A stretch of 64,000 bases of DNA from a virus (lineage: Duplodnaviria > Caudoviricetes): positions 1 to 64,000 of the IMG/VR virus record IMGVR_UViG_3300028888_000074; one strand, written 5' to 3'. The first letter of the stretch is position 1, and each line of letters opens with the position of its first letter. This document shows positions 201 through 19,023 of this stretch, piece by piece. A program made the translations under genes and the position numbers. The notes under the pieces were generated by a model. The model did not search any database. It saw only the letters and a program-made list of their open reading frames with translations, and was not told the DNA's origin.

Positions 201-260
201 ATATATGTTTGGCATGGTGTTTGCATATTATATGGTGAGCAATTAAAATTTAGAATTATT

Positions 261-671
261 ATGACACAAAAAGAAAAAGAATTGTTACTCCAAGTCATTT
301 GCACAATGTTGCCGTATGGAGTTAGAGTTAAACTTAATGGGCGTAGAGAAACATCAAATAAATTAACAATTGATTGGCTTTATGCATATTCAAGACACAT
401 TGAAGATATTAAGCCATATCTTCGTCCAATGTCAAGTATGACAGAAGAGGAAAAGGTAGAATATGACCAGTTGTGTTATAATTGCCAAGAGCAAGATAGC
501 GTTGATTACAATATAACCCAACTTGATAGGACACAACTTATATATGTTATTGATTGGCTTAACGCCCATCATTTTGACTACCGTGGTTTAATCCCTATGG
601 GATTGGCATTAGAAGCACCAGAAGATATGTATGCAACGAAATCAAAATCAACAACAACAAAACAATTGTGA
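261..671 (+). CDS. Phage hypothetical protein, MTQEEK..LPYG..KPYLRPMSSMT..HHFDYRGLI family (paralog 1 of 3)
   Basis: ATG at 261 after the AATTAAAATT leader; motifs shared with 25131 and 26015. Confidence 0.8.
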   Translation: MTQKEKELLLQVICTMLPYGVRVKLNGRRETSNKLTIDWLYAYSRHIEDIKPYLRPMSSMTEEEKVEYDQLCYNCQEQDSVDYNITQLDRTQLIYVIDWLNAHHFDYRGLIPMGLALEAPEDMYATKSKSTTTKQL

Positions 672-748
672 TTATGTTGGCAGCAATAATATTGATAGGC
701 AGTTTCGGTGCAGTGGTTTATTCCTGCATTGGAAAATAGTGACACCAA

Positions 749-762
749 TACGCAGATGCGTA
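749..762. promoter_or_regulatory. Palindromic operator TACGCA-NN-TGCGTA (other copies at 9580, 15160, 18120, 18952, 20939)
   Basis: Six near-identical intergenic 14-bp palindromes. Confidence 0.7.
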
Positions 763-798
763 CACATATTTGGCACGATAATTGTATAAACGATATGT

Positions 799-834
799 GG
801 GTCAAGGTGCGCCACCCGAATCAAAGTGCGCACC
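799..834 (+). promoter_or_regulatory. Conserved 5' leader hairpin (other copies at 9085-9118 and 15184-15219)
   Basis: GGTCAA followed by stem GGTGCGC/GCGCACC; the 9085 copy has stem GGTCTC/GAGACC. Confidence 0.55.
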
Positions 835-855
835 GCAACAATTAAAATTAGAATT

Positions 856-1119
856 ATGGAACAGACAAAAGAACAAAAAGTTTATGTACTCACGACACAA
901 TGGAGTTTGGATTATGAGCAAGGCAGCAATGTAGGTGTGTATGCCACAAAGGAACTTGCCCAAAAGGAGATGAAACGTGACTATGAGTATATGTGTGAGG
1001 AATATCCCGATTGGGTTAGAAGTATTGATGATAATTGTGCTGAAATGCAGGAAGAGGGTGATTATACCCGAAATCATTGCGATTGGCAGATAAAGGAAAT
1101 GAAAGTAATCACCGAATAA
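856..1119 (+). CDS. hypothetical protein
   Basis: ATG after conserved leader and sigma54 motif. Confidence 0.75.
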   Translation: MEQTKEQKVYVLTTQWSLDYEQGSNVGVYATKELAQKEMKRDYEYMCEEYPDWVRSIDDNCAEMQEEGDYTRNHCDWQIKEMKVITE

Positions 1120-1353
1120 AAAACAAGTATCATGGATGAGATTATCAATATGCTAACCAAACCTTTCGTTACGGGAGAGTATGTCTATTTTTGGCGGTTG
1201 GAATGGTGGAAATGGTTTATAGTAGAACCACCAAACCGAAAGCACCTCATCGGGAAGCTATATTGGAGGTGCAAGTAAAGTGAATTGGCACGCTTTTTGC
1301 ATATATCGCAACACAATTAACAAGTTTTATTCACAATTAAAATTTAGATTATC

Positions 1354-1782
1354 ATGGAAAAACAAGCAGTCATTTCATTCAGCGTTGCAACAACAATAAG
1401 CGGAAATTCTATCGCTGAAATCAAGCGTAAATTTGAAAATATGAATATTCCGTTTGAGTTCATTGAATTGTTGTCCGTAGAGGATGCGAAGACAAGAGAT
1501 GACTTGATGGAGGTTTGGAATGATGACCGACCACTCTGTGAGTTGGAGGATGAATTGAGAGAACAATTTGATGATTTTGACACCGATACATTTTGTATTG
1601 ATGATTATGGCATCAAACACAATGGTGCTTTAATCACCCACATTACAAAGCCCAACGATGCGGATATTTGCTTTTGGAGTTGTAGTAGAACTCCGTATTG
1701 TGATAAGGATGCCGAAGAAATCCAAATCACAGACTACGACCAAAGAAGAGAAATCATTATTGAAATCCTGCAAAATTTGTAA
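1354..1782 (+). CDS. hypothetical protein
   Basis: ORF with leader and sigma54 motif. Confidence 0.75.
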   Translation: MEKQAVISFSVATTISGNSIAEIKRKFENMNIPFEFIELLSVEDAKTRDDLMEVWNDDRPLCELEDELREQFDDFDTDTFCIDDYGIKHNGALITHITKPNDADICFWSCSRTPYCDKDAEEIQITDYDQRREIIIEILQNL

Positions 1783-1803
1783 ACAATTAAAATTCAGATT
1801 ATC

Positions 1804-2031
1804 ATGGCAAAAATCAGTAAAGAAGAAATCAAGAACCTCAACGGAAAAAAATATGAGTTTGAGCAGGCGGTATATTGGAACGGAGATGGTTGGGCGAGCG
1901 TGTGCGGATATTTCACCGAAAAAGGTGTTGTCCGTTTCGCGGGGACACCGATGGAAACCATAGAAACCTATGATGAAATTGACGATTACATCCTGCAAGT
2001 CTGCATTGACAATATCGTTGATAACGATTAA
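1804..2031 (+). CDS. hypothetical protein
   Basis: ORF with conserved leader. Confidence 0.7.
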   Translation: MAKISKEEIKNLNGKKYEFEQAVYWNGDGWASVCGYFTEKGVVRFAGTPMETIETYDEIDDYILQVCIDNIVDND

Positions 2032-2099
2032 GACGAGACATTATAATAATTAAAATTAGCAAAACAATCATTAATTAAAATTTCATTAAAAAAAGTATT

Positions 2100-2783
2100 A
2101 TGAAGAAGATTTTATTTGTATTAACAATGGTTTTAATGAGCGTATGCTCTTTTGGTCAAGAATACAAAACAATTGATATTCCTTTGTCGGTGGAATATGG
2201 TCTTGTCCCGAAACAAGAAGTAATCAAAAGTTTTGACACCATTGAAAAATCGTATCAAGTTAAAGAATTGGTTACATCAAAAATTTCCAATCGTGGTTTT
2301 AAGACCGATTCGGATGGCTCAATATTGACAATTCTAACCCTTGAAGATGGACATATCGTCACACTTTCAGTCGCAAACAATCTAACCATCGCAGGAGATA
2401 TTATTGGTAGTGATTATAGTTATTACATTACACGAACCAAATGTTATCCGTATTATAAAGAAAAATACGATACCATCTATGTTAAGGTGAATGCTCCGAA
2501 ATATGTAAACCTCGCTTTGTTAAAAGTGAAGTCGGAAATGTATATTGACAACAAAACCCATTATTCAGCAAAAATCTATTCCTATTCACTTGATAAGGCA
2601 TTTTGGATTGAAACCGACAATTATTTTTATAAAAAGCACGAAAACGACAAGCGTATTACAAAAAGAAAAGCAAGATTGAACAAATACTATATGGAATATT
2701 CCGATTACAAGATGTTTTTGAATTTCGTATATACCGCATTTAGAATTAAAAATTATAATTTCATTGAAACACCATCCAATTAG
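2100..2783 (+). CDS. hypothetical exported protein
   Basis: N-terminal signal peptide MKKILFVLTMVLMSVCSFGQ. Confidence 0.75.
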   Translation: MKKILFVLTMVLMSVCSFGQEYKTIDIPLSVEYGLVPKQEVIKSFDTIEKSYQVKELVTSKISNRGFKTDSDGSILTILTLEDGHIVTLSVANNLTIAGDIIGSDYSYYITRTKCYPYYKEKYDTIYVKVNAPKYVNLALLKVKSEMYIDNKTHYSAKIYSYSLDKAFWIETDNYFYKKHENDKRITKRKARLNKYYMEYSDYKMFLNFVYTAFRIKNYNFIETPSN

Positions 2784-2873
2784 ATAATCAAAATATTCGT
2801 GTCATGCCGATGAGGTTTGGCACGATTTTTGTTTATATGGAGATGTATTAGTAACAATTAAAATTACGATATT

Positions 2874-3989
2874 ATGAAAATCACATTAAAAGAAATTACA
2901 ATCGGAGAAGTTGCAAAAGGTTTTGTTGATAACAACGAACAAGGTGTTGTCGGTTATGACGGATTGTTGAATATCCGACCCGCATACCAAAGGGAATTTG
3001 TCTATAAGGACAAACAACGCAATGCGGTCATTGACACGATTATGAAAGGTTTTCCGCTTAATGTTATGTATTGGGCGAAAAATGCAAATGGCACTTATGA
3101 ACTCCTTGATGGTCAGCAAAGAACAATATCTTTCTGCCAATTTGTCAGCGGTTGGTTCTCCGTGACTGACACAAATGGCAATCCGAAGTATTTTCAAAAC
3201 ATGACTGAAAAGGAGCAATCCGATTTCCTTTCATACAAATTGTTCATCTATGTTTGTGATGGGGCAGACAACGAGCGTCTTGATTGGTTTCGCACTATCA
3301 ATATAGCAGGCGAAAAACTGACCGACCAAGAACTTTTGAACGCTAATTATGTCGGTGCTTGGTTGAGCAGCGCAAAACAAAGGTTTTCAAAGACAAATTG
3401 TGTGGCATACCATATTGGCAACAAATATGTCAATGGCAGTCCGATTCGGCAGGAATACCTTGAAACCGCTATTAAATGGGTTTCCGATGGCAAGGTTGCT
3501 GAATACATGGCAGCGCATCAATTTGATGAAAATTCCGATGAATTATACAATCACTACCGCAATGTGATTGATTGGATTGAAAAAACATTCACCACATACC
3601 GAAAGGAAATGAAAGGTTTGGATTGGGGTAAATTGTATAAAACCTATCACAAAAACGAATATGATAGTGAAAAACTTGAAGAACAAGTGAAAGAGTTGAT
3701 GATGAACGATGAGGTCACCGACAAGAAAGGCATCTATGAATATGTGTTGAGTGGAAAGGATGAGTATATCGCACGCAAATTGTCAAAACGGACTTTCTCC
3801 AATGCTGACAAACGAACTGCCTATGAAAGACAAAATGGCATTTGCCCTAAATGCGGTCAGCATCACGAATTTTCCGAAATGGATGGAGACCACATTGTCG
3901 CTTGGTGGAGAGGAGGCAAAACAACACTTGACAACCTTCAAATGCTCTGCAAAAAGTGCAATGGTGTGAAAAGCGGAAAGACTGAATAA
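2874..3989 (+). CDS. DUF262 (ParB/GmrS-like) domain plus C-terminal HNH endonuclease
   Basis: IRPAYQREFVY, LLDGQQRT, FRTINIAG; C-terminal CPKC..DHIVAW..GG.T...NLQMLCKKCN. Confidence 0.85.
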   Translation: MKITLKEITIGEVAKGFVDNNEQGVVGYDGLLNIRPAYQREFVYKDKQRNAVIDTIMKGFPLNVMYWAKNANGTYELLDGQQRTISFCQFVSGWFSVTDTNGNPKYFQNMTEKEQSDFLSYKLFIYVCDGADNERLDWFRTINIAGEKLTDQELLNANYVGAWLSSAKQRFSKTNCVAYHIGNKYVNGSPIRQEYLETAIKWVSDGKVAEYMAAHQFDENSDELYNHYRNVIDWIEKTFTTYRKEMKGLDWGKLYKTYHKNEYDSEKLEEQVKELMMNDEVTDKKGIYEYVLSGKDEYIARKLSKRTFSNADKRTAYERQNGICPKCGQHHEFSEMDGDHIVAWWRGGKTTLDNLQMLCKKCNGVKSGKTE

Positions 3990-4061
3990 CTTTGGCATAC
4001 TTTTTGCATATATGGGAATGTCAGTATATTTATAGAAACAACAATTAAAATTATAATTACT

Positions 4062-4958
4062 ATGGCAAATAACAATTCAAACCTGCACAATGCAAAAACC
4101 GCAAAAAACGATGAGTTTTACACCCAACTTTCCGACATTGAGAAAGAACTGAACAACTACAAGGACTTTTTCAATGGAAAAATCGTTTATTGCAATTGTG
4201 ATGACCCAAGAGAATCCAATTTTTTCAAATTCTTCTCATTGAACTTTGAGAGACTTGGCTTGAAAAAACTCATCACTACGGGGTATAAGAAAGACGGACA
4301 CGGGGTTGTTTTTGTCTATGAGGGTGACAAGAACGGAAATAGAATGGTTGATGATGATGAGGTTGTTGTGACCGAATTGAAAGGCAATGGTAGTTATGAT
4401 TCCGAAGAGTGCATTGAATTTCTAAAAGAATGCGATGTTGTTGTGACCAACCCACCATTTAGTTTGTTCCGTGATTATGTGAAACAACTGATGGACTACA
4501 ATAAGAAATTTTTAATCATTGGAAGCCAAAATGCTATCACATACAAGGAGATTTTCCCTTACATCAAAAATAACCAACTTTGGTTAGGAATGAATTGGGT
4601 GAAAGAGTTTATCCAACCTAACAAGGAAATAAAAAAATTTGGAAACATTTGTTGGTTTACCAATGTGGAAAACAAAAAGAGAAACAAACCTTTGGATTTG
4701 TATAGAAAATACAATCCAACTGACTATCCGAAATACGACAACTATGATGCTATTGAGGTCAGCAAAGTAACTGATATTCCCGAAGATTACAACAGAGTGA
4801 TGGGTGTACCTATTACTTTCCTTGACAAATATTGTCCTACACAATTTCAAATTGTAGGAATTGACCGCTATGTTGAAGATAATCCAAATTATGGACATCG
4901 TTTCAACATCAATGGAAAAGAATGTTACGCACGAATTTTAATTAGGAAACTCGCTTAA
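4062..4958 (+). CDS. Adenine-specific DNA methyltransferase, EcoRI-methylase family
   Basis: AKTAKNDEFYT, VYCNCDDP, catalytic VTNPPFS, MGVPITFLDKY. Confidence 0.88.
   Translation: MANNNSNLHNAKTAKNDEFYTQLSDIEKELNNYKDFFNGKIVYCNCDDPRESNFFKFFSLNFERLGLKKLITTGYKKDGHGVVFVYEGDKNGNRMVDDDEVVVTELKGNGSYDSEECIEFLKECDVVVTNPPFSLFRDYVKQLMDYNKKFLIIGSQNAITYKEIFPYIKNNQLWLGMNWVKEFIQPNKEIKKFGNICWFTNVENKKRNKPLDLYRKYNPTDYPKYDNYDAIEVSKVTDIPEDYNRVMGVPITFLDKYCPTQFQIVGIDRYVEDNPNYGHRFNINGKECYARILIRKLA
4838..4858 (+). repeat. Left 21-bp inverted repeat inside the methylase gene
   Basis: TACACAATTTCAAATTGTAGG is the exact reverse complement of 5042-5062. Confidence 0.9.
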
Positions 4959-5062
4959 TCAATAATCTTTTATAAACACCCTTTCCATTGATTTCAAATT
5001 GACCAAGTGATGCTCCATTTCCATCAATATCGTGTTCGTGACCTACAATTTGAAATTGTGTA
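4942..5062 (-). other. Silent inverted alternative C-terminus of the methylase (TQFQIVG-HEHDIDGNGASLGQFEINGKGVYKRLLIKRVS*)
   Basis: Homologous to the expressed tail TQFQIVG..FNINGKECYARILIRKLA* and in frame after the repeat. Confidence 0.8.
5042..5062 (-). repeat. Right 21-bp inverted repeat
   Basis: CCTACAATTTGAAATTGTGTA. Confidence 0.9.
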
Positions 5063-5115
5063 CAATTAACGAAAAAAATATGACATTTATTGCATAATCC
5101 TAATTTTAATTGTAA

Positions 5116-5171
5116 TGACAATGTGTCACCTTTAACTGACAAGGTGGCACATTTTTTATGACAATATGTCA
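5116..5171. promoter_or_regulatory. TGACA-N3-TGTCA cluster 2
   Basis: Boxes at 5116, 5137 and 5159 (21/22-bp spacing) before the sigma54 motif at 5181. Confidence 0.65.
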
Positions 5172-5233
5172 GTTGAGGTTTTGGCATGGTATTTGCATAA
5201 TGGTAAATGTATAACAATTAAAAATTTAGTGCT

Positions 5234-5572
5234 ATGAGCGAAAATATTGAAAAAATCATTAAGAACGCAAAAGATAATAACTATAACACAATGGATATGG
5301 TTATTGCCGCCAACTCAATTATGGTGGAAGAATTGAAAAACAAAATCAAAGAAAACGGAGGTAGCATTTCATTCACCAAACAATTCTCAAATCCATTTAT
5401 GGTATATTGTGGAACTGAGGTGAGCGAGGTCAAGGTGACCAAAGTTTATTTTGATGAAAATGAAGAAATTAAAATTGACGGGCAAATTGTTTATGGTGAT
5501 GATACCATTTATACATTCGATATTGACGAATTTGTGATGGGGCAGATATACAACATTCTCATAGTGATATAA
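5234..5572 (+). CDS. hypothetical protein
   Basis: ORF with sigma54 motif and leader. Confidence 0.75.
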   Translation: MSENIEKIIKNAKDNNYNTMDMVIAANSIMVEELKNKIKENGGSISFTKQFSNPFMVYCGTEVSEVKVTKVYFDENEEIKIDGQIVYGDDTIYTFDIDEFVMGQIYNILIVI

Positions 5573-5625
5573 CAAATTGGCACACTATTTGCATATAGGG
5601 AAATGTAACAATTAAAATTAGAATT

Positions 5626-5937
5626 ATGGCAACATCAAGAGAAATCAAAGAAAAAGCAATCCAAAGTTTAATAGAAATTATTTCCTCTTGTGTCAAGAGG
5701 AGTGGTGGAAAAATAACAACCCGTGTCAATATTGGGGAGGCAAGAACACACAACGAAGTGTTCACCCGAACCATTAGGGATGTGTTTGATTACAAACACT
5801 CAAACAAAGACGCTTTACGAAATTCCGAATACGATTTGTATTATAGCGAAGATTGTTGCCACGATGCACCGATTGAAGAATTGGGATTCTATCAATTGTT
5901 TGAGATTGCATACCAATGTGAAAATATTAACAATTAA
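5626..5937 (+). CDS. hypothetical protein
   Basis: ORF with sigma54 motif and leader. Confidence 0.75.
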   Translation: MATSREIKEKAIQSLIEIISSCVKRSGGKITTRVNIGEARTHNEVFTRTIRDVFDYKHSNKDALRNSEYDLYYSEDCCHDAPIEELGFYQLFEIAYQCENINN

Positions 5938-5949
5938 GATTACAAGATT

Positions 5950-6207
5950 ATGAATAGCATTGAAACCTTACCAATCAGCATTGAGCGCAAAGGTGGCATA
6001 TATACATTAGATGTATATGTTACCGCATGGAACAAGTTGTGCGTATCTTATAGAAACATTGTGGTCCCTGCTGACAAGTATTGTTCGGTAGTGATTGAGC
6101 CCGACAATTATTCATCAAAACCAAACATTGAAAATGAATCAATTGGGAATGCCCGAAATCTTGACGATGCGGTGGAAATGATTAAAGAATATATTGAAAA
6201 CAATTAA
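5950..6207 (+). CDS. hypothetical protein
   Basis: ORF in co-oriented array. Confidence 0.7.
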   Translation: MNSIETLPISIERKGGIYTLDVYVTAWNKLCVSYRNIVVPADKYCSVVIEPDNYSSKPNIENESIGNARNLDDAVEMIKEYIENN

Positions 6208-6209
6208 TT

Positions 6210-6455
6210 ATGAATACCGAGAGAAAAAATTATATTTGTGAAAATGAGGATGAGTACAAGGAATTGCTATCATCCTTTGTGGCAACCAAAGCGTATGCCA
6301 AAATCAAGGAACACAACCTAAATGAAAATCAATCGTGGAAATTGATGGAATGGGCAATCAATTATTCCATCAATCTATATGAGAAAAGTGAAACGCTAAA
6401 CTATTATGTGATGGATTTGGATTTTGAAAAATACATCATTGAAAATTTGGCATAG
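6210..6455 (+). CDS. hypothetical protein
   Basis: ORF in array; stop overlaps the next sigma54 motif. Confidence 0.7.
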   Translation: MNTERKNYICENEDEYKELLSSFVATKAYAKIKEHNLNENQSWKLMEWAINYSINLYEKSETLNYYVMDLDFEKYIIENLA

Positions 6456-6510
6456 TATTTGCATATTGCATAATGTCAATTTAATTTATTCACCAATTAA
6501 AATTTGAATT

Positions 6511-7065
6511 ATGGCAAAGAAACAAAAAACCTATCGTGTGAGTTTATCATGTGTCTATAACGGATATATGAATGTAAAGGCGGACAATGAAGACGATGCT
6601 CTTCGCAAGGCAAATGAAATGCTTAACTGCGAAACCTTGTCGGAATTTCCCCAATATGTGGATATGCCTTATGGAGAATTTCAATTTGGTGAGGCAACTG
6701 CCGATTTCATTGAAGAAACCTATGAGGATGATGACAATATGTCACCCGATTCTGACATTGTGTCAGACCAATGCGCAAGCGGTGTTGTCCGTGAGTATGG
6801 TGTGATGTTTTGTGATGAGGGTATTTTCGGGGATGATGAAGAACACGAATACGATGTTGATTGTGCCGATGGTGCTGCCGTTGCACACGCAAAGAACGAA
6901 AAAGACCCACAAACATTAGTACTGACCTATCCGAAGATGGCGGAGGTTGTCAAAAATGTGAAGATGGTAGATGATATTGGTGATTATCGTGGATTGCTCT
7001 ATAACGAAAAAATCCACTACGCTGATGTTATGATGTATTGTGGCAAGATTGTCGCACGGATGTAA
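6511..7065 (+). CDS. hypothetical acidic protein
   Basis: ORF with sigma54 motif and leader. Confidence 0.75.
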   Translation: MAKKQKTYRVSLSCVYNGYMNVKADNEDDALRKANEMLNCETLSEFPQYVDMPYGEFQFGEATADFIEETYEDDDNMSPDSDIVSDQCASGVVREYGVMFCDEGIFGDDEEHEYDVDCADGAAVAHAKNEKDPQTLVLTYPKMAEVVKNVKMVDDIGDYRGLLYNEKIHYADVMMYCGKIVARM

Positions 7066-7086
7066 GGTGGAATTTTAATTGTTGTC

Positions 7087-7122
7087 AGCGTGCCATGCTT
7101 TTATGAGTTTGGCACGCTTTTT
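7087..7122 (+). terminator. Intrinsic terminator whose 3' arm is the sigma54 -24 box (also about 2798, 10105, 15874)
   Basis: AGCGTGCCA...TGGCACGCT followed by TTTT. Confidence 0.6.
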
Positions 7123-7168
7123 GCGTATAGTAATATGTAAACGGATTGTCTAACTTAAACCACCGACA

Positions 7169-7322
7169 ATGAAACCACCTTAATAGCATAGGACATAAAA
7201 ACCAATAAGGCATGGGTTATGCCGAAAAGGGCTGAACATTTAGTAGTGTAGTAGGAGAGTGTACTCCGTCACACGAAAAGCGTTTAGGAGAGTGTACTCC
7301 AACCTACCCTTTATTTTTTTAT
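7169..7322 (+). ncRNA. Candidate structured RNA, copy 1, with micro-ORF MKPP*
   Basis: Downstream of sigma54 motif 7109; about 150-nt homology to 15946-16105; two GGAG-AGTGTA-CTCC hairpins; ends in a U-tract. Confidence 0.55.
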
Positions 7323-7324
7323 AG

Positions 7325-7410
7325 GGACACATTGTCAGTCCTGCCATGACACTTTGTCAGTATGACATTTTTGTCATGTGTGTCATGCCACATTGTCAGT
7401 ATGTGTGACA
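7325..7410. promoter_or_regulatory. TGACA-N3-TGTCA cluster 3
   Basis: Boxes at 7325, 7347, 7363 and 7386 before the sigma54 motif at 7418. Confidence 0.65.
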
Positions 7411-7466
7411 AACAAGTTTGGCATGATTATTGCATGATGTATGGAGAATAATTAAAATTTCCGATT

Positions 7467-7754
7467 ATGAGCAACAATACAAACAAAGAAAAAGCAAAGG
7501 AGTTATTTTACAATTTTTGCAAAGAGAAATCTTGTGATGGTAGAGTTATATGCACATTTTGTCCAAGAGCAAAGGCATTAGCACCATTGATTGAAATGGC
7601 AGAGTGGAAAGAAAAACAAATGATTGAGAGGGCGCAAGATTTTATTGCCACTTGGTTTTATGAACATCCGCATGAACAAAAATTTATATGCTCCGATGAA
7701 TTTGGAAGTATTGACCAATTGCTTGAAAAGTTGAAAAAAGCAATGGAAGAATAA
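7467..7754 (+). CDS. hypothetical protein
   Basis: ORF with sigma54 motif. Confidence 0.75.
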   Translation: MSNNTNKEKAKELFYNFCKEKSCDGRVICTFCPRAKALAPLIEMAEWKEKQMIERAQDFIATWFYEHPHEQKFICSDEFGSIDQLLEKLKKAMEE

Positions 7755-7832
7755 AATTCCCGAATATGAATTTTAGTTTGGCACACTTTTTGCATATAGT
7801 AGTGTGCAGTAATAACAATTAAAATTAGAATT

Positions 7833-8192
7833 ATGAAACAAGCGACAAAATTGGTAGCAGCGAAAAAAGAAATCGGAAGAGTAATGCAGATTGCTGAAAC
7901 GATAAGAACACAAATCAAATACCCGAACAAATATGTGTTTTGCTCTTGGGGAGCACACAACTTCCAATTTGCGGTCACGGATGACAATAACTACCCTGCA
8001 TTGCGTTTCAAGGTGAACGGAATGAAATTCAAGGGTTATGTGCATATCATCTACAACCCTATGGATTACTATGAGATTGAGTTTGTCAGCACTCATGGCA
8101 ATTTGAAGAAGAGAGTGGAAATGTGCTATTTTGACAATTTGCAGGAAATCATTGACAATTATGTTGAGAAAATTCCCGAATATGAATTTTAG
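7833..8192 (+). CDS. hypothetical protein, flanked by a ~32-bp direct repeat
   Basis: AAAATTCCCGAATATGAATTTTAGTTTGGCAC at 7753-7784 and 8169-8200. Confidence 0.78.
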   Translation: MKQATKLVAAKKEIGRVMQIAETIRTQIKYPNKYVFCSWGAHNFQFAVTDDNNYPALRFKVNGMKFKGYVHIIYNPMDYYEIEFVSTHGNLKKRVEMCYFDNLQEIIDNYVEKIPEYEF

Positions 8193-8261
8193 TTTGGCAC
8201 GGTAATTGCGGATAATCAAGTACAATTAACAATATCATTAACAAACAAAAACAACACAATT

Positions 8262-10738: not shown

Positions 10739-10812
10739 AACAATCACTTTGGCACGATAATTGCACATAGTATAGTGACAATTTAGTAATAACAATTAAA
10801 ATTAGAAATTTT

Positions 10813-11178: not shown

Positions 11179-11239
11179 AGTTTGGCATGGTTATTGTATA
11201 TAGTATGGTGTAGTATTAACAATTAAAATTTCAATTATT

Positions 11240-11938
11240 ATGGCAACAATTGACACAAAAGAAATCAACGAAAGAATAACAAAATATTATTCTCATACAA
11301 GGGAATTGCGTCAAGACATGGTTTCAGCAATCACCAATATGCTGAAAGATATGGGTGGCGAAATCTCGCTTACCGACAAACAATATGACGATACATTGTG
11401 TATTGCCTATGATGGCGGCAATCATGCGGAATACGCTTCCTCCATGTGTGAGGAGGTGGAATCAATCAAAACCTTGCAAGACGAAGATAATTTTTATGTT
11501 GAGGTTGCTGGCGAGGATTACATTGAAAGTCATAGATTGATTTTTGACGATGTGTGCGCTATTTGGGATGTTGTTTCATCAAGATACAACGATTTCAATG
11601 AGAATGTCGGTCAGTACAAAGAGGTTGTTGAAATCGCCAACAAGAATGAACTTAAAATACAAATGAATTTCAGTCTTAATGACGAATTGGATATTGTCAA
11701 ACAATTCGGTGAACCAATTGACCTTGAAACTTTGGAAAATCCCGCCTGCGTTGAGGTTAAAAGTTATTTGTATGTTGATGTCTTGGGTAATCAAACAATT
11801 GCCGAATTAAGAGGTAGTGACGAAAAGTTTTCCAAGTACCAAAACATTGTCGCTAATTTGATGAAAACCAAGAAACCGCAATATCTCATCGGTGCGAAAG
11901 ACGGAATTGTGCAAGGTCTATTGTGGTGCGAGTTCTGA
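11240..11938 (+). CDS. hypothetical protein
   Basis: ORF with sigma54 motif and leader. Confidence 0.78.
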   Translation: MATIDTKEINERITKYYSHTRELRQDMVSAITNMLKDMGGEISLTDKQYDDTLCIAYDGGNHAEYASSMCEEVESIKTLQDEDNFYVEVAGEDYIESHRLIFDDVCAIWDVVSSRYNDFNENVGQYKEVVEIANKNELKIQMNFSLNDELDIVKQFGEPIDLETLENPACVEVKSYLYVDVLGNQTIAELRGSDEKFSKYQNIVANLMKTKKPQYLIGAKDGIVQGLLWCEF

Positions 11939-12013
11939 TTTTTGGCACGATTATTGCATATAACACAATACAAACAATTAAAATTAATATTAACAAATTA
12001 AATTAAAATTATT

Positions 12014-12775
12014 ATGGGACAATATTATAAAGCGTGTTTCGTAAACACAAAAAAGGACAAAGTTGAAGAATATTTTGAATCTTGGGACACAAATAGTGGT
12101 TCTAAATTAATGGAACATTCGTATGTTGGCAATAAATTTGTGATGAATGTCACCTACAAAATGATTAATTCACCGAAGAGACTTGTTTGGGCGGGAGACT
12201 ATGGGGATGAAATTGTTGGAGAGGATAATTTCTATGACCTCACAAATAATGCGGAAAAATCAGAACCATTTGAAATTGATATGATGAAACATGTACTTGA
12301 TGCAAACACCATCTATATCAATCACGACAAAAAGGAATGGTTTGACCTCAAAAAGCAGACAATTCCCGCTATGAGAGGTTGGAGTGGAATTGTACACCCT
12401 CTCCCAATACTAACCGCTGACGGAAATGGTCGTGGAGGTGGAGACTATGGTGGTGCGAACATGGAACTTGTCGGCACTTGGAAAGGTGATTTAATTGAGA
12501 TTTCAGATACCATCCCCGACAATTATATTGAGATTGAGCCGTGGTTTACGGAAATGTCACAAAAAGAAATTGATGAATATTTCAAAGAGTTGGAAAACCC
12601 AAAAAAGAAATACACAATCAAAATCAATTATACAACATCGGAAGAATTTGTTGTAGAGGCACACACCGAAGAAGAAGCTTTAACACTTGTGGAGGATATG
12701 AATCCCGATGAAACACAAGTTTATGAGAACCTTACCCTTGACGGAAGTCCGCATGTGATTTTTTGTGAAGATTAA
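12014..12775 (+). CDS. phage hypothetical protein (MGQYY..KLMEHSY..WAGDY..HPLPILT.DGNGRGGGDY)
   Basis: ORF with sigma54 motif. Confidence 0.8.
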   Translation: MGQYYKACFVNTKKDKVEEYFESWDTNSGSKLMEHSYVGNKFVMNVTYKMINSPKRLVWAGDYGDEIVGEDNFYDLTNNAEKSEPFEIDMMKHVLDANTIYINHDKKEWFDLKKQTIPAMRGWSGIVHPLPILTADGNGRGGGDYGGANMELVGTWKGDLIEISDTIPDNYIEIEPWFTEMSQKEIDEYFKELENPKKKYTIKINYTTSEEFVVEAHTEEEALTLVEDMNPDETQVYENLTLDGSPHVIFCED

Positions 12776-12816
12776 TTTGTTGCTTTTTCATAGTTTGTAA
12801 GTTTTAATTAGTTATT

Positions 12817-12909
12817 TGTCATGGGTGTGTCATTTTGGCACACCTTTGTCATTTTTGTCATGTGACATTATGTACTGACAATTTGGCAAACATACATGAC
12901 ATTATGGCA
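12817..12909. promoter_or_regulatory. TGACA-N3-TGTCA cluster 4
   Basis: Boxes including 12876 and 12897 before the sigma54 motif at 12919. Confidence 0.6.
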
Positions 12910-12982
12910 TTTATAAGTTTGGCACGCTTTTTGCATATAGGGTAGTGACAATTTAGTATTAACAATTAAAATTAGAATTATT

Positions 12983-13579
12983 ATGATTAAGATTGAAATT
13001 CAAGCAGAAGATTATCATATTGCAGATGCAATGAGTGATTTGGTTATGAGAATTGAAAATGGAAACCTTTTGGATTCGGTGTATTTGGATAGAGCGGATA
13101 GTGTTACCATCCGTGATGACAATTATACTGCCACATTGTCAAAGGTAAAGCAAATTGAGAAACCTAAAATGTCAGCACACAAGTCGGAACTTATTGACGA
13201 AATCAAACTCTACGCAGGTCTTGAATATTCAATTGATGACTTGTGGAATGGTGAGGATTACGAAACCGAAGACGGAATGGTCAAGGAAGATGGTGTAGAA
13301 AGATTTACCAATGATTGGAAACACATCTTTGAAACCTATGAGGAAATTGATGAAGATGTTTTGGAAAACATCTTGGAGGCTGTCAAGAAACACCCTCTCG
13401 TCACCACAAAGAGAAATGTCCTTTTGGAAGACGATGAAACCGATTTTGGTGGCATATCGTTCATCGGTGAAACCCTGCTTGACTTCATGCTTTCAGTCCA
13501 CATGCCTTTCACCTCCACAAAGGAAGAAATTGACAAGGCATTGAAAGAATGTGGCATAAGACCACTTTTTGAAAAATAG
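12983..13579 (+). CDS. hypothetical protein
   Basis: ORF with sigma54 motif and leader. Confidence 0.78.
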   Translation: MIKIEIQAEDYHIADAMSDLVMRIENGNLLDSVYLDRADSVTIRDDNYTATLSKVKQIEKPKMSAHKSELIDEIKLYAGLEYSIDDLWNGEDYETEDGMVKEDGVERFTNDWKHIFETYEEIDEDVLENILEAVKKHPLVTTKRNVLLEDDETDFGGISFIGETLLDFMLSVHMPFTSTKEEIDKALKECGIRPLFEK

Positions 13580-13644
13580 TTTGGCATGGTATTTGCATAT
13601 AGCATAGTGACAAATCAGTATTAACAATTAAAATTAGAATTATT

Positions 13645-14028
13645 ATGACAATCAACATTCCCCAAAACACCTATCAATCTCCAACCACCATCAATCCCGA
13701 AATGGTAGAACTAATCTGCAAGGTATTCATTCGTGGTGATGAATATAAGGCTACATCATGCAATATTATTGCGGCAGATTATTGTATTGACACATATTCC
13801 GTTAAATATCCTCGTTTCTATAATGGATATAGAAGTGGGATTGGGGAAAAACACGAAGAGAGAAAATTCAACGGAGCGGAAATGAATGCGGCTTTTAATG
13901 CACTAATCCAAGCAGGTTATTATATGTTCAAAACCTACGATAAGGGTGTTGTATATAAGTGCAAAAGAGTGCCTTATGATAATGACGGATGGCAGAGAGT
14001 GTATTCATTTGACACTCAAATTGACTAA
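13645..14028 (+). CDS. hypothetical protein
   Basis: ORF with sigma54 motif and leader. Confidence 0.75.
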   Translation: MTINIPQNTYQSPTTINPEMVELICKVFIRGDEYKATSCNIIAADYCIDTYSVKYPRFYNGYRSGIGEKHEERKFNGAEMNAAFNALIQAGYYMFKTYDKGVVYKCKRVPYDNDGWQRVYSFDTQID

Positions 14029-14062
14029 TTTAAATAACAATTAAAATTAAAATCATTAAATC

Positions 14063-14278
14063 ATGGATAAGAGAAAGATTGAAACTGCCGATGGCATTGT
14101 ATTATGCAAGACCGCATTTGACACCGACACAAATACCGATTACATTGAGTTCTACCTTCACAATGGCGAGGAGGAAAGCGTGTTCCCTTATGACTATGTT
14201 GGTGAAAGCACAATGATGAAAGACTTTTCAGCATACACCGATAGTGAATTGGTTGGTCTCTATTATGAGAGTGTATAA
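14063..14278 (+). CDS. hypothetical protein
   Basis: ORF with leader. Confidence 0.68.
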   Translation: MDKRKIETADGIVLCKTAFDTDTNTDYIEFYLHNGEEESVFPYDYVGESTMMKDFSAYTDSELVGLYYESV

Positions 14279-14346
14279 AACTTTGGCACACTTTTTGCAT
14301 GTAGTATAGAGACAATTTAGTATTAACAATTAAAATTAAAAAGATT

Positions 14347-15153
14347 ATGGAAAAGAACATCAATGAAATCATTTTATTCGCAAACATTAAGGGTGAAAAT
14401 GGTCGTGAAGTCCGTGAGGCAAGAATCGTTGAACTCAACGAAAGACCTTGTTATTACTATTTCAATAAATCAACAAGCAAGTTAGATTATGTTCGTGGTT
14501 GTGGATTTTGTTTCACGCTTGAAATCGCAGGTATTGGCAAGGTATCGTCATACAAATTCTTAAATGACTACAAAGGTGGTTTATATAAGACATTAAACCT
14601 TGCATTACAAAACGATGAAGACTATACATTATTTAGGAACGGACATAATGAAAACATACTTAATATCGGTTGTATTGCCGATATATACTATGATGATTTG
14701 AATCTGACACATCCTTGCACTACATTGGAGTTTGAGTATGTGCGTGTGAATAGTTATGTCAATACTACTCATTTCCGTTTGAAACCAATCAGTTATTATT
14801 GGGATGGTACGAAGACCCAACGCTATGAAATTAAGTGGAAATTCCAATTTGACCTCATTGATAACAAGATTAAAATGTATGAGGGTGGTCGTAATTATGA
14901 AGACAAATTAGGTAAGTTGTATGCCACAAAGGAAATGTGTGAGAACGACAACAAACCGACCATTGTGCGATTTGACAACAAGCCAAAAGAAGTTGAAAAG
15001 ATTGTGACCTTTGAAATCACATTGGGGGTGAAAGTTGATTCTTCAAGTAATGAAGAGGATGCCATTTCCGCAGCAATGTATAAGATTAGAACCTGCGATG
15101 ATGAAGTCCTATTTGAATCTTGTGTCTCCTGCACAACCTATCCAAACAAATAA
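14347..15153 (+). CDS. hypothetical protein
   Basis: 268-aa ORF with sigma54 motif. Confidence 0.78.
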   Translation: MEKNINEIILFANIKGENGREVREARIVELNERPCYYYFNKSTSKLDYVRGCGFCFTLEIAGIGKVSSYKFLNDYKGGLYKTLNLALQNDEDYTLFRNGHNENILNIGCIADIYYDDLNLTHPCTTLEFEYVRVNSYVNTTHFRLKPISYYWDGTKTQRYEIKWKFQFDLIDNKIKMYEGGRNYEDKLGKLYATKEMCENDNKPTIVRFDNKPKEVEKIVTFEITLGVKVDSSSNEEDAISAAMYKIRTCDDEVLFESCVSCTTYPNK

Positions 15154-15246
15154 CCATAATACGCAACTGCGTACATACACTTTGGGTCAAGGTGCGCCGC
15201 CCGAATCAAAGTGCGCACCATAACAATTAATTAAAATTTGAATAAT

Positions 15247-15558
15247 ATGAACCAAGACAATATGCCCATCGCAACAAAATTGGCGGAGGTTTTACTTAAA
15301 AAACAAGATGGTGATTTCACACCGATTACCTTTGACTGCCTAATCCGTGTGAATGGAAACTACAATACCGAAAGTGTGACCATGTGCTATTGCACGGAAG
15401 AGGAGATGGAAACCCTTATGGCGAACCCATCGTTTGACGATACCATTTTCTTCTACATTGTGGTTGGCGAGAACCCTATCAGCAACCTTTTCAACGAGGA
15501 GGATTTTGAAATCGTTGATGTATATGAGAATAGTGTGCAGGATGTTCTTTGGATATAA
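15247..15558 (+). CDS. hypothetical protein
   Basis: First ATG after the leader. Confidence 0.7.
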   Translation: MNQDNMPIATKLAEVLLKKQDGDFTPITFDCLIRVNGNYNTESVTMCYCTEEEMETLMANPSFDDTIFFYIVVGENPISNLFNEEDFEIVDVYENSVQDVLWI

Positions 15559-15580
15559 CAACAACTAAAAACAATAGAGT

Positions 15581-15841
15581 ATGGACTATATCATTATCAA
15601 AGAAGACAAGACACCGCTTTGTTTTGATGACAATTCAATTGTTGTCTATGGGGACAAGCATGATGCACTTGAAGACCTTGCGGAAAACGACTTCGGTCTT
15701 GTTGAGATTGAATATGACGGGAATGCCGCAACATTGTATTTTGATGGCGAAATCGTTGGTTGGTTTGAGTATGACACAAATGACGAAGACGATTACCAAT
15801 CAAAATTGAAAGAATCCGTTTCAATGATGTTTTTGTCATAA
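15581..15841 (+). CDS. hypothetical acidic protein
   Basis: ORF in array. Confidence 0.68.
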   Translation: MDYIIIKEDKTPLCFDDNSIVVYGDKHDALEDLAENDFGLVEIEYDGNAATLYFDGEIVGWFEYDTNDEDDYQSKLKESVSMMFLS

Positions 15842-15945
15842 TATCAGTAAATAGTTTGTTTTAATTGTCGCTTGCGTGCCATGCCGATGAGGTTTGGCAC
15901 GCTTTTTGCATATACCAATATGCAAACCAATTAATAATTTAAATT

Positions 15946-16105
15946 ATGATTAGACCACCTTAATAGCATAGGACATAGTATCAGTAAGGCATGGGTTGTG
16001 CCGACAAGGGCTGAACATTGGATGAAAGTGTAGTAGGAGAGTGTACTCCGTTACACTTAAAATGGGTAGGAGAGTGTACTCCGTCACACCCTTTATTTTT
16101 TTTAT
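15946..16105 (+). ncRNA. Candidate structured RNA, copy 2, with micro-ORF MIRPP*
   Basis: Downstream of sigma54 motif 15894; homologous to 7169-7322. Confidence 0.55.
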
Positions 16106-16107
16106 AA

Positions 16108-16192
16108 GGACATGTTGCCAGTCCTGCCATGACACATTGTCACTATGACATAATGTCAGTGTGGCATGACAAATTGTCATAGGACATGACAA
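16108..16192. promoter_or_regulatory. TGACA-N3-TGTCA cluster 5
   Basis: Boxes at 16108, 16130, 16146 and 16167 before the sigma54 motif at 16200. Confidence 0.65.
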
Positions 16193-16254
16193 ATAAAGTT
16201 TGGCACGATAGTTGCATATAGTAGGGTGTAATAATGATAATTAAAATTTGAATT

Positions 16255-16431
16255 ATGGATTACAAAGAGAAAATGAAAGAGTTATTGTCCAATCTCATGG
16301 ATGATGGGTTTGAGGGCGCAATCCCAACCTTGATTGTTGAAGTGTTGGAGAGCATGGAGTTCAAGCACAATCATAATACCGACATGATTAGTGCGTTGAA
16401 AGACCAATGCGAAGTGGCATTGAACAATTAA
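16255..16431 (+). CDS. small hypothetical protein (58 aa, not in the ORF track)
   Basis: MDYKEKMKELL...EVALNN* after sigma54 motif and leader. Confidence 0.65.
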   Translation: MDYKEKMKELLSNLMDDGFEGAIPTLIVEVLESMEFKHNHNTDMISALKDQCEVALNN

Positions 16432-16444
16432 AATTTGAATTAAT

Positions 16445-16681
16445 ATGAAAAGACAAAGAGATTACAATTATTGGGTCATTGACAATTTCAATGAGCATTT
16501 CAAAACATTGAAAGATGCGAAATACCATTGCGACATTGCCTTTACACCAAAGGAGAGGAAAATGTACCTGCGAAGAGCGTTGATATACCATATTGTAGGG
16601 GATAGCGTTGTCTCCTATGTGGAAATCCGCATTGATGACAATGGCACATATTCATTTGGCAAAGTAATCAAAAACAAATAA
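16445..16681 (+). CDS. hypothetical protein
   Basis: ORF with leader. Confidence 0.7.
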   Translation: MKRQRDYNYWVIDNFNEHFKTLKDAKYHCDIAFTPKERKMYLRRALIYHIVGDSVVSYVEIRIDDNGTYSFGKVIKNK

Positions 16682-16688
16682 AACCAAT

Positions 16689-16919
16689 ATGAAACAAATT
16701 ATCAAACACCTTAACAAGCATGGTCTTTATTATGAAGTGTATAAAATCATGGATGAAATCCGAATTGAAATCATTTGGGGTGATTGGAAGCATGACCATG
16801 CACGAACCGATTATGTTATGAATCAAATCGGTTATAGAAAGACAAGCGAAATTGTAACGGAAGAAAATGGGGATGATTCGTACTCATCCATCCATTGCTA
16901 TAATAAAATCAATTATTAA
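16689..16919 (+). CDS. hypothetical protein
   Basis: ORF in array. Confidence 0.7.
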   Translation: MKQIIKHLNKHGLYYEVYKIMDEIRIEIIWGDWKHDHARTDYVMNQIGYRKTSEIVTEENGDDSYSSIHCYNKINY

Positions 16920-16940
16920 CCAATTCAAATTCAAATCACT

Positions 16941-17273
16941 ATGGATAAAGAGTTTATTGAAGAGTTTTTGGATTTCACCAAATCAAACAATGTGACCACG
17001 AAGAGCGATTTTCACAAGGTCACAATCCTTTCCGATGAGGTTGAAATCGCCACCATCAACGAAGATGGCACACTCACCATCAACATGACCAACCAAGTAG
17101 GAATTACAAAGGATTTTGTAGGAATCATACTTGATTACAACATCAAGTTCACACCAACCATTGACAAGGAATACAAATACTTGAATGGGATTAACCTTTC
17201 CAACGACAAGGGTTTGTGCCTCACAATCACAACCGACAACAAGATTGTCCTCCCCACAAATATCGGGGAGTGA
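16941..17273 (+). CDS. hypothetical protein
   Basis: ORF in array. Confidence 0.7.
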   Translation: MDKEFIEEFLDFTKSNNVTTKSDFHKVTILSDEVEIATINEDGTLTINMTNQVGITKDFVGIILDYNIKFTPTIDKEYKYLNGINLSNDKGLCLTITTDNKIVLPTNIGE

Positions 17274-17332
17274 CAATGTTTGGCACGATTTTTGCTGTAA
17301 TATTCACCAACAATTAAACACAAAAAAACAAC

Positions 17333-17674
17333 ATGAATAAGAAACAAATAAAGAAAACACTCTCCGAAATCTACAAAAAGGAGAATGAAATTCTGCAAGA
17401 GGGAACGAAACTAAAATCCCTCATTGAAAAAAACACATGCGAGATGCTTGAATATATGGGCGGCTCAATTGATGTTGAGGATGACGAAGAATTGCTCATT
17501 TCAAACGACAACTTTGTGGGAGAGGCAAGAACCATCAAAAACAACGATTCGGGTGGTTTCACCATCGTGTACGATTCGCTTCCGTCATTGCCGTCAAAAG
17601 CACTCACACATCGCGATATGTCATCGGTACACGGATATGTCCACCGAAAGTATATCCAATGCACCAAAGACTAA
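17333..17674 (+). CDS. hypothetical protein
   Basis: ORF with sigma54 motif. Confidence 0.7.
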   Translation: MNKKQIKKTLSEIYKKENEILQEGTKLKSLIEKNTCEMLEYMGGSIDVEDDEELLISNDNFVGEARTIKNNDSGGFTIVYDSLPSLPSKALTHRDMSSVHGYVHRKYIQCTKD

Positions 17675-17785
17675 TATTTGGATATTCCTTAATAAAAATA
17701 TATAATAATATTATTAATTAAAATTTAATATTATTAATATTTAATTAGAATTTTAATTTTATTATTAACTAATAAATAAGCATAC

Positions 17786-18052
17786 ATGAGTAATAGAGGA
17801 AAAACAATCTTGATTTCAATCTGCATCATTTTCATCGTCTGCACATTGGTGTATGGCATCATCGCAATCCCATCCCAATATGGTGACAACATTTGGTTCG
17901 GATTCATGGCTTTCGTGTCCCTGGTCTGCATCGTGTTCATCTCGGACAGCAGCAAGAAACACTTGTGGAAGGAAGACTTCCGAAAAGAAAGTGACAACGC
18001 GCTATTCGGCGCAAATCCAGACACGGAAGCGGAGGTTGAAAAAACCGAATAA
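17786..18052 (+). CDS. hypothetical membrane protein (2 TM)
   Basis: Two hydrophobic segments. Confidence 0.7.
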   Translation: MSNRGKTILISICIIFIVCTLVYGIIAIPSQYGDNIWFGFMAFVSLVCIVFISDSSKKHLWKEDFRKESDNALFGANPDTEAEVEKTE

Positions 18053-18167
18053 AAAAATTCCAATTTTATTTGCTTTTTCCATTTTTTTCTTGTATCATTA
18101 TATCACAATGATATTACAGTACGCAACTGCGTACATGAAAGAATAAAAGCATATATATAATATTGGA

Positions 18168-18536
18168 ATGACATTGAAAAGAATTGTAATTTTAATTTCA
18201 ATCATAATCTTTGGATTCAATGCACATGCGCAAACGACATACGGCAATACGGCACTTGTCAAGTCCGTACAAGACGGAATCGTCACTGGGGAAAAAACAA
18301 TGTATGTCAGTGTCACCATCAACGACACAAAGGACACCCTGCGATGGTCTGCTGGTGACTACTACGGAGGATACTTCCCAATCACAAGGGTTGAATGCCG
18401 CCCGTCAGACACGACATACCGATGCATTTACAAAGGTTACAGGGAGGATGCTACATTCAAGACCTATGAGGACTACTGCAAACTCCTAATCCGTAGCACA
18501 GAGGACGGATACATCAAGTTCCTCTTCGCACAATAG
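18168..18536 (+). CDS. hypothetical exported protein
   Basis: Signal peptide ending AHA-Q. Confidence 0.7.
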   Translation: MTLKRIVILISIIIFGFNAHAQTTYGNTALVKSVQDGIVTGEKTMYVSVTINDTKDTLRWSAGDYYGGYFPITRVECRPSDTTYRCIYKGYREDATFKTYEDYCKLLIRSTEDGYIKFLFAQ

Positions 18537-19023
18537 CGCATACATATCCAATATGTACAACAACGGGGAAGCTAACAGCAAAGTTATATGTTAATGGGGT
18601 AACAAACTGCTTCCCGACACACACACGCTCTTTGAAATAAAAAAAAGCAATCGCACAGCAAACTTTCTTATTAATGCAAATAAAAAGCTCACTATGGTCA
18701 TAATTTCCAAGGCACACGCCGTAGCCTTTGACCGAAAGCGGCAGGGTAAAGAAAACGGGTCATAGCGTACTGCCCGAAAAGGCGCACCACCTCGATTGCT
18801 GTCAATAACACATGGGGTGTGCCAGTTTATCATGGCTAGGCTTTCTTATTACTTATTTGTGCGGCACCAGCCCAGCCATTCGCGGTCTTGTTTTTTTTCA
18901 TATCGGCACACCCCTTTTTTAAAAACTGGCACACTTTTTGCTAGCATATGGTACGCAACTGCGTACATAAAAAGAAGAAAAATTTTAATTTTAATTAACA
19001 AACAAACTTTAAAACTTAAAACA

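Follow-up and report, generated by a model that had tools for sequence, protein, structure and literature searches.

Textbook phage programmes begin with the host housekeeping sigma factor or with a phage polymerase. Sigma-54 (RpoN) cannot open DNA without an ATP-driven activator. In Flavobacterium psychrophilum, the mapped starts of groES-groEL, dnaK, grpE-dnaJ, htpG, clpB and lon lie behind sigma-54 (-24/-12) promoters (PMC9723704), and in a survey of sigma-54 regulons the chaperone cluster was enriched in Bacteroidota (PMC12316311). Among phages of this phylum, phi14:2 of Cellulophaga, which is crAss-like, has three temporal classes of genes: the early genes share no common motif and are transcribed by a virion RNA polymerase, and the middle promoters are -35/-10-like (bioRxiv 10.1101/2020.03.07.982082). 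No paper on sigma-54 promoter arrays in phages was found in the literature, the nearest being a preprint of 2026 that describes an AAA+ protein of a T4-like phage with structural similarity to sigma-54 activators, and such arrays appear unpublished. Herein, we analysed the phage record IMGVR_UViG_3300028888_000074 of IMG/VR (Caudoviricetes; 115,947 bp), of which positions 1 to 64,000 form the window that gives the array coordinates below. Its first 19 kb carry 25 sigma-54-type promoters. We estimate a probability of about 70% that this block consists of promoter-gene cassettes read by the host polymerase with RpoN and activated most likely by a sensor-less PspF-like ATPase. The array puts a known class of promoter to a new use; as an element it is not of a new kind.

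The strict 17-mer TTGGCAY-N5-TTGCA had 18 matches, all of them on the plus strand and within 209-16216, whereas shuffles gave an expectation of 0.02. A relaxed motif, TGGCAY-N5-TTG[C/T], which adds to the strict set the copies with TTGC[A/G/T], those with TTGT and one copy without the leading T, gave 25 plus-strand copies from 210 to 18,941 (last start 18927). There was none on the minus strand of the whole 115,947-bp record, and the remaining 97 kb outside the array held a single weak copy, at 41737. In a non-circular test, in which sites were chosen by the -24 hexamer (TTGGCAY) only, TTG[C/T] stood at the exact +12 offset in 24 of the 26 plus-strand sites of the first 19.1 kb and in 1 of the 28 sites elsewhere in the record; information downstream of the sites selected in this way was highest at TTGCA.

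All 25 copies carry GG, and the -12 dinucleotide is GC in 21 and GT in 4. GG and GC are exactly 10 nt apart in the motif, which is the obligatory one-turn spacing of sigma-54. The de novo consensus of the aligned copies, TTTGGCAcG.TttTTGCAT, equals the sigma-54 consensus TGGCACG-N4-TTGCW at 12 of 12 specified positions, among them the G that follows TGGCAC and the W that follows TTGC. The aligned copies read TTTGGCAcG.TttTTGCATATAg, followed by a variable stretch and then by a second conserved box, ACAATTAAAATTAGAATT, adjoining the ATG. Every copy shares the sense of its downstream transcription unit: in 23, the -12 C lies 34-85 nt (median 49) before an ATG, and the other two (7110 and 15895) head, instead of an ATG, a duplicated non-coding stretch predicted to give a terminator-bounded RNA. 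These promoters are the sole recurrent promoter type of the gene block. The counts bear out most of the first-pass annotation, which had described 25 co-oriented copies with a sigma-54 signature that were essentially absent past 19 kb; its distance of mostly 30-65 bp before an ATG was essentially right as well. It had written the motif of all 25 as TTGGCAC/T-N5-TTGCA, which holds for the 18 strict copies and fails for the other 7, found with the relaxed motif only.

The record was judged to be ~32% complete, implying a jumbo phage of ~360 kb, and five relatives were analysed beside it (G001 to G005; the record itself is G000). Scans of array windows (26-34 kb) gave 19 copies on one strand in G001 (361 kb, 100% complete), 41 + 4 copies, typically 35 nt before ATGs, in G003 (217 kb), 27 copies within about 20 kb in G005 (335 kb, complete, with terminal repeats) and few copies in G004 (413 kb). 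When four divergent jumbo phages are compared, conservation is confined to TTTGGCAC(G) and TTGCA, at fixed spacing; the spacer, the region after the -12 element and the leader differ. Several IMG/VR contigs carried multiple motif copies in a pattern scan; in a wider scan, the matches listed were mostly single sites.

The array genes common to G000 and G001 are 66-84% identical in nucleotide sequence and scrambled in order (window 1-19000 versus G001:130001-160000, L078/L079), and each keeps its own promoter. This comparison suggests that the repeated promoter and leader sequences may serve as a route of cassette shuffling. In G005:258001-284000 (L082+L083), many sites are 35-bp face-to-face palindromes (TTGGCA...TTGC-N5-GCAA...TGCCAA) between same-strand genes, which could hold an antisense RNA promoter, a terminator hairpin or a decoy; they may double as terminator hairpins. 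A megablast of the array against cultured phages gave no match, and a 626-aa protein, the large terminase according to PHROGs, had only distant matches among cultured phages, mostly annotated as exonucleases.

The same promoter design was found at host chaperone genes. TGGCAY-N5-TTG lies 39-132 nt upstream of dnaK in 24 of 26 Bacteroidales genomes (0 in the opposite-strand control), and in an Alloprevotella metagenome-assembled genome (MAG) the best strict match lies 132 nt before dnaK. An unbiased 5-mer count of the 160 nt upstream of dnaK ranked TGACA/TGTCA first, with 53 observed versus 6.7 expected. At groES, the -24 element is present in 24 of 27 genomes, TGACA/TGTCA was observed 53 times versus 8.1 expected, and the -12 element is more degenerate; the strict motif occurs in only 2 of 27 genomes because the -12 element is degenerate in most Bacteroidales, the promoter itself being present. 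Within the 100 nt before the 25 phage promoters, TGACA/TGTCA was again the top 5-mer (51 observed versus 9.6 expected), concentrated at six promoters, and 11 of the 13 TGACA-N3-TGTCA dyads of the record are in the array. For the genus Alloprevotella, TTGGCAC-N5-TTG[C/T] precedes dnaK in 12 of the 12 genomes in which dnaK was found (15 searched), and most of these upstream regions carry TG[A/C]CA-N3-4-TG[T/G]CA dyads, the phage's own form. The phage array has the -24/-12 plus TGACA/TGTCA dyad design of the host chaperone regulon, with a dyad form identical to that of Alloprevotella, which supports the view that the phage copies the promoter-plus-enhancer design of host dnaK and groES.

The array shares with the sigma-54 chaperone promoters of Bacteroidota (motif SM4; PMC9723704, PMC12316311) the -24/-12 core and, in the Bacteroidales examined, the TGACA/TGTCA dyads; for the genus Alloprevotella, the likeness goes as far as TTGGCAC-N5-TTGCA and TGACA-N3-TGTCA. 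However, the phage has 25 copies in 19 kb versus a handful per host genome, its -12 element is nearer to the consensus than that of most hosts, and most of its copies are without a dyad cluster of their own. No chaperone or protease gene lies downstream of the array promoters, where ORFans (genes without recognisable relatives), a nuclease, a methylase and a sigma factor are found instead; the array would work in the manner of the chaperone regulon but does not belong to it by gene content. The classical sigma-54 promoters glnAp2, pspA and nifH (PMC7057263) also have GG and GC one turn apart in TGGCAC-N5-TTGCW and upstream dyads for an AAA+ activator, and the candidate host activator described below has the sensor-less architecture of PspF. 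They differ in that the phage promoters stand in a phage context as the only recurrent type of a block, and in that the phage clusters adjoin the -24 element, whereas classical enhancers lie 80-150 nt upstream. T4 and other large lytic phages have dense arrays of early promoters, which resemble this one in having one strong uniform promoter per small gene, early in those phages and presumably early here, in shuffling between relatives and in a cascade, here a proposed one, via phage specificity factors, but they use the housekeeping sigma factor and no ATP-dependent activator. With phi14:2, the phage would share the host phylum, Bacteroidota, and candidate middle promoters of the -35/-10-like kind; it differs in having no detectable phage polymerase, its 2019-aa protein being a collagen-like tail fibre.

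Profile searches were carried out for machinery of the phage's own. Neither Sigma54_DBD nor Sigma54_CBD gave a match in any genome from G000 to G005. In the phage relatives, complete genomes included, there was no bona fide PF00158 activator; their PF00158 matches are ClpB-type or generic AAA proteins, and as candidate phage activators they were rejected as ClpB-type two-ring chaperones. A conserved 373-aa AAA protein (105892-107013, minus strand) was rejected as an activator as well, being Cdc48-like without a GAFTGA loop. RNA polymerase beta-prime (PF00623) and T7-type polymerase (PF00940) had no match in G000, G001, G003, G004 and G005; very divergent enzymes could escape, and the PF00940 control matched 0 of 14 genomes. 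The 2019-aa open reading frame (record 93662-99721, minus strand) was considered as a crAss-like virion polymerase, with the motif as its promoter, and rejected: it is a collagen-repeat tail fibre with many PHROG tail-fibre matches. A ClpB-type two-ring AAA+ chaperone of ~790-850 aa is encoded by G001 (177909-181364, L056) and G003 (L058) and is not in the 116-kb fragment; it is of interest beside phage promoters that appear to copy those of host chaperone genes.

The host probably belongs to Bacteroidales, since the phage leaders are A-rich without a Shine-Dalgarno sequence and a TnpB element is held in common with the Alloprevotella MAG. A Shine-Dalgarno-like 4-mer precedes 11 of 124 phage genes, no more than at background (11%), and A is enriched at -3, -6 and -12 to -14 of the gene starts; this combination is the pattern of Bacteroidota. 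The cassette leaders are short and take the form ACAATTAAAATT...ATG. The TnpB element (54738-56072, minus strand) has 81% protein identity to the MAG copy; the flanks are unrelated, and only the element matches. The same element is 68% identical to a copy in a 'Bacilli' MAG contig, and the phage has several divergent TnpB elements (OrfB_IS605 plus Cas12f-like TNB), at 36649-37998, 39424-40650, 54738-56072 (minus strand) and neighbouring positions. Searching Atlas with the pncB gene of the phage yielded no host signal that could be used. RpoN is encoded by the Alloprevotella MAG and by a Paludibacteraceae MAG. The former (G006) has a single sigma-54 activator of 385 aa (L243:889-2046, minus strand), with an AAA+ domain from residue 17, a GAFTTA loop instead of GAFTGA, HTH_8 and no sensor domain. 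This PspF architecture makes it a candidate heat-shock regulator of Bacteroidales.

Reading of the block by host RpoN is favoured because of the consensus match, the conservation in relatives, the absence of phage machinery and the design shared with host dnaK and groES. The site binders, the transcript starts and the host identity are inferred by us from sequence, and the block is presumably early. Each cassette would consist of a near-consensus TTTGGCAYG-N4-TTGCATATAG promoter and a short leader, which has no Shine-Dalgarno sequence, followed by a single small gene or a few of them. Host sigma-54 holoenzyme would bind the 25 promoters, and the sensor-less host activator would assemble on the seven dyad clusters as enhancers and open the neighbouring promoters. 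The clusters are 2-5 kb apart and five adjoin promoters; at cluster-less promoters, none of which is more than ~2.7 kb from a cluster, the activator would arrive by looping or from solution. Such an ATPase apparently drives the chaperone (heat-shock and protein-quality-control) genes in Bacteroidota. As chaperone genes are strong even without stress, promoters of this kind would fire on DNA entry and rise with infection stress. The last promoter would yield a phage sigma-70-family factor, by which the core polymerase would be redirected to TTG-N16-18-(G)TATAAT-type promoters past 20 kb. Two further proposals of the first-pass annotation fit these results: that the block runs on host RpoN, which is also in line with the RpoN and activator genes of the candidate host; and that a host stress signal is involved, which the dnaK and groES likeness makes specific. 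It had also suggested a search of the rest of the genome for a phage rpoN or enhancer-binding protein, of which none appeared in the record or the relatives G001-G005. A bolder version, which we offer tentatively, is that one lineage of jumbo phages of Bacteroidales has copied the host's sigma-54 heat-shock switch in both its parts, promoter and enhancer, as the sole entry to its programme, coupling infection to protein stress, and that the array also captures the single activator and RpoN, starving the chaperone regulon while feeding a cascade from host sigma-54 through phage sigma to late genes.

Several observations weigh against reading by host RpoN. The record covers ~32% of the genome, so the absence of an activator rests on the relatives, and the host assignment is indirect. 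An enhancer-like cluster lies near only 6-7 of the 25 promoters, and no TGACA clusters were found in the distant relatives G003 and G005. Most sampled Bacteroidales carry TTGA or ATG, not TTGC, at -12, and the phage matches some lineages only. The minus-strand half of the G005 palindromes is without a gene to serve. Of 27 sites, made up of the 25 promoters and two stray regex matches, 9 can also be read as TTGGCA-N16-TAnAAT, and a divergent phage-encoded factor, invisible to Pfam, is possible. A phage-encoded reader could be a sigma-70-family protein, an unrecognisable sigma-54 analogue or an activator binding half-sites, with the sigma-54 likeness a matter of mimicry or coincidence. These phages do encode several sigma-70-family proteins, TTGGCA resembles a -35 box with a TATAAT-like hexamer 16 nt downstream at some sites, no cognate activator gene was seen in the phage, and divergent phage proteins can escape Pfam. 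However, the invariant blocks are one helical turn apart, a spacing that no sigma-70-family factor is known to use, and a conserved sigma-70 -10 hexamer was not found: a -10-like hexamer occurs at 9/27, 4/21, 19/45 and 3/25 sites in four phages versus a 12% background and is not conserved between them. Information peaks at TTGC, inside the would-be sigma-70 spacer. The primary-sigma pattern of Bacteroidota, TAnnTTTG ~19 nt after TTG, occurs twice in the array, neither time at a -24/-12 site or an expected start. The sigma gene itself stands behind the last copy and would need a separate starter, and the same promoter with upstream dyads is found at host dnaK and groES. Such a reader seems quite improbable to us.

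The sites might also bind host sigma-54 holoenzyme and activator chiefly to soak them up, shutting down or diverting the chaperone response, with expression secondary. The numbers would suit a decoy array, as the two candidate host MAGs have only 3-4 strict sites each in 2.6-3.6 Mb, whereas 19 kb of phage DNA has 18; the activator of the Alloprevotella MAG is its only one, sigma-54 holoenzyme is established to form stable closed complexes, and half of the G005 sites are in the wrong sense to genes. Yet all sites in G000, G001 and G003 are co-oriented with genes and stand either 24-85 nt in front of an ATG or ahead of a terminator-bounded RNA, a placement that, like one copy per gene, a pure decoy would not need. 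Titration is possible as a side effect of real promoters, and we regard a decoy as the chief function as unlikely. A role as recombination or insulation elements, which shuffle and separate cassettes with no real promoter activity, would account for the different order of homologous genes in G000 and G001, each with its own upstream repeat, and for the hairpins, each with a T-run after it, into which three G000 copies and most G005 copies fold with an inverted partner. But 22 of the 25 copies are without an inverted partner, a known promoter consensus is matched at every specified position, and shuffling is likely a by-product of repeated promoters, as in the T4-type promoter-stem-loop repeats. 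This role is very improbable.

The features of the array are collected in the table.

Table. Promoters, enhancer-like clusters and predicted RNAs of the array (window positions)
Feature	Position	Strand	Remarks
Whole array	126..19890	+	25 sigma-54-type promoters, 7 TGACA/TGTCA clusters, ~40 small genes (mostly ORFans), 2 non-coding RNA copies, terminal sigma-70-family gene
Enhancer-like cluster 1	126..200	.	8 TGACA/TGTCA pentamers incl. TGACA-N3-TGTCA dyads; stops 10 nt before promoter 1
Promoter 1	209..225	+	then gene 261-671
Promoter 2 (TTGT at -12)	770..786	+	then gene 856-1119
Promoter 3	1285..1301	+	then genes 1354-1782, 1804-2031, 2100-2783
Promoter 4 (TTGT)	2817..2833	+	then DUF262/GmrSD_N + HNH nuclease gene 2874-3989
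Promoter 5	3992..4008	+	then EcoRI-type adenine methyltransferase gene 4062-4958
Enhancer-like cluster 2	5116..5171	.	5 pentamers, two TGACA-N3-TGTCA dyads; 11 nt before promoter 6
Promoter 6	5181..5197	+	then gene 5234-5572
Promoter 7	5577..5593	+	then genes 5626-5937, 5950-6207, 6210-6455
Promoter 8	6447..6463	+	then gene 6511-7065
Enhancer-like cluster 3	6732..6765	.	two dyads 21 bp apart, within gene 6511-7065
Promoter 9	7109..7125	+	then non-coding RNA copy 1; -24 element doubles as 3' hairpin arm (7087-7095 with 7110-7118), T5 after
Predicted non-coding transcript copy 1 (~185 nt)	7136..7320	+	T7 run at end; conserved in G001
Enhancer-like cluster 4	7333..7410	.	8 pentamers; 9 nt before promoter 10
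Promoter 10	7418..7434	+	then gene 7467-7754
Promoter 11	7778..7794	+	then gene 7833-8192
Promoter 12 (TTGCG)	8194..8210	+	then gene 8262-9053
Promoter 13	9056..9072	+	then gene 9142-9510
Promoter 14	9602..9618	+	then gene 9665-10084
Promoter 15	10126..10142	+	then gene 10190-10738; inverted -24 element copy upstream
Enhancer-like cluster 5	10642..10697	.	5 pentamers; 53 nt before promoter 16
Promoter 16	10749..10765	+	then gene 10813-11178
Promoter 17 (TTGT)	11182..11198	+	then gene 11240-11938
Promoter 18	11942..11958	+	then gene 12014-12775; core identical at G001 orthologous gene
Enhancer-like cluster 6	12817..12901	.	7 pentamers; 19 nt before promoter 19
Promoter 19	12919..12935	+	then gene 12983-13579
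Promoter 20	13581..13597	+	then genes 13645-14028, 14063-14278
Promoter 21	14283..14299	+	then gene 14347-15153 plus small downstream genes
Promoter 22	15894..15910	+	then non-coding RNA copy 2; inverted -24 arm upstream
Predicted non-coding transcript copy 2	15921..16110	+	behind promoter 22
Enhancer-like cluster 7	16130..16191	.	7 pentamers, three dyads; 10 nt before promoter 23
Promoter 23	16200..16216	+	then genes 16255-16431, 16445-16681, 16689-16919, 16941-17273
Promoter 24 (TTGCT)	17280..17296	+	then gene 17333-17674, small genes on to 18536
Promoter 25 (no leading T; TTGCT)	18926..18942	+	then phage sigma factor gene
Phage sigma-70-family factor	19026..19890	+	regions 1.2, 2 and 4; start revised to ATG 19026

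The array genes are nearly all ORFans, with the DUF262+HNH nuclease, the EcoRI-type methyltransferase and the terminal sigma-70-family factor as exceptions. The G001 ortholog of this factor (54% identity) likewise stands behind the last promoter of its array. Past 20 kb (20736-57300), the intergenic motifs are TTG-N16-18-(G)TATAAT (examples at 20736, 22249, 26458, 28262, 43808, 45129, 50275, 54674 and 57278) and CTATTTAT(A) (examples at 20970, 29592, 36722, 39410 and 57932). They are possibly middle and late promoter classes read with phage sigma factors, and the switch of motif after 20 kb, together with the sigma gene behind the last array promoter, fits a cascade.

A leader box, ACAATTAAAA(TT), which stands immediately 5' of the ATG, is almost restricted to the array, where 18 of its 22 plus-strand copies lie (838-16424), and the leaders of G003 have the box AACCAAAAAA in its place. 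The leader box may be a class-specific translation signal or the site of a translational regulator. At three promoters (7081-7125, 10090-10142 and 15859-15910), an inverted leader box and -24 element (…TTAATTGTTGTCAGCGTGCCA…) lie just 5', and the promoter's own TGGCACGC plus TTTTT is the 3' half of a terminator-like hairpin; these look like a fused terminator and promoter.

The non-coding stretches behind promoters 9 and 22 are ~185 nt long and ~78% identical, each ends in a T-run, and they are conserved in G001, with the counterpart at L078:10040-10240 (minus strand). Each contains a GGAGAGTGTACTCC hairpin, in two copies, and a GGCAT...ATGCC hairpin before the T-run end; in G001 the latter reads GGAGC...GCTCC and thereby shows a double compensatory change. 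The fold of the ~185-nt stretch was no better than that of shuffles (z -0.26), and an Rfam search of the array found no family, with no match for this stretch either. Elsewhere, the phage has an RNA-repair set comprising an RNA ligase, a phrog_850 'RNA-binding protein', a CCA-adding tRNA nucleotidyltransferase and an RlaP-family nucleotidyltransferase, located at record 70226-73893 (minus strand), record 91441-92691 (plus strand) and window 46148-47332. No tRNA genes were found in the window.

With a whole gene block on sigma-54, the phage would depend on one particular stress circuit of the host, which it may also sense. DnaK and GroEL, whose genes this circuit drives in Bacteroidota, are among the most highly expressed there, so that copying it would give strong, stress-boosted promoters. 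The array may offer a handle on the still-unnamed heat-shock activator of Bacteroidota, its promoter-plus-enhancer signature may help in assigning hosts to uncultured phages, and its promoters may serve as a compact, orthogonal set for Bacteroidales genetics. It is predicted that rpoN or activator mutants would resist these phages.

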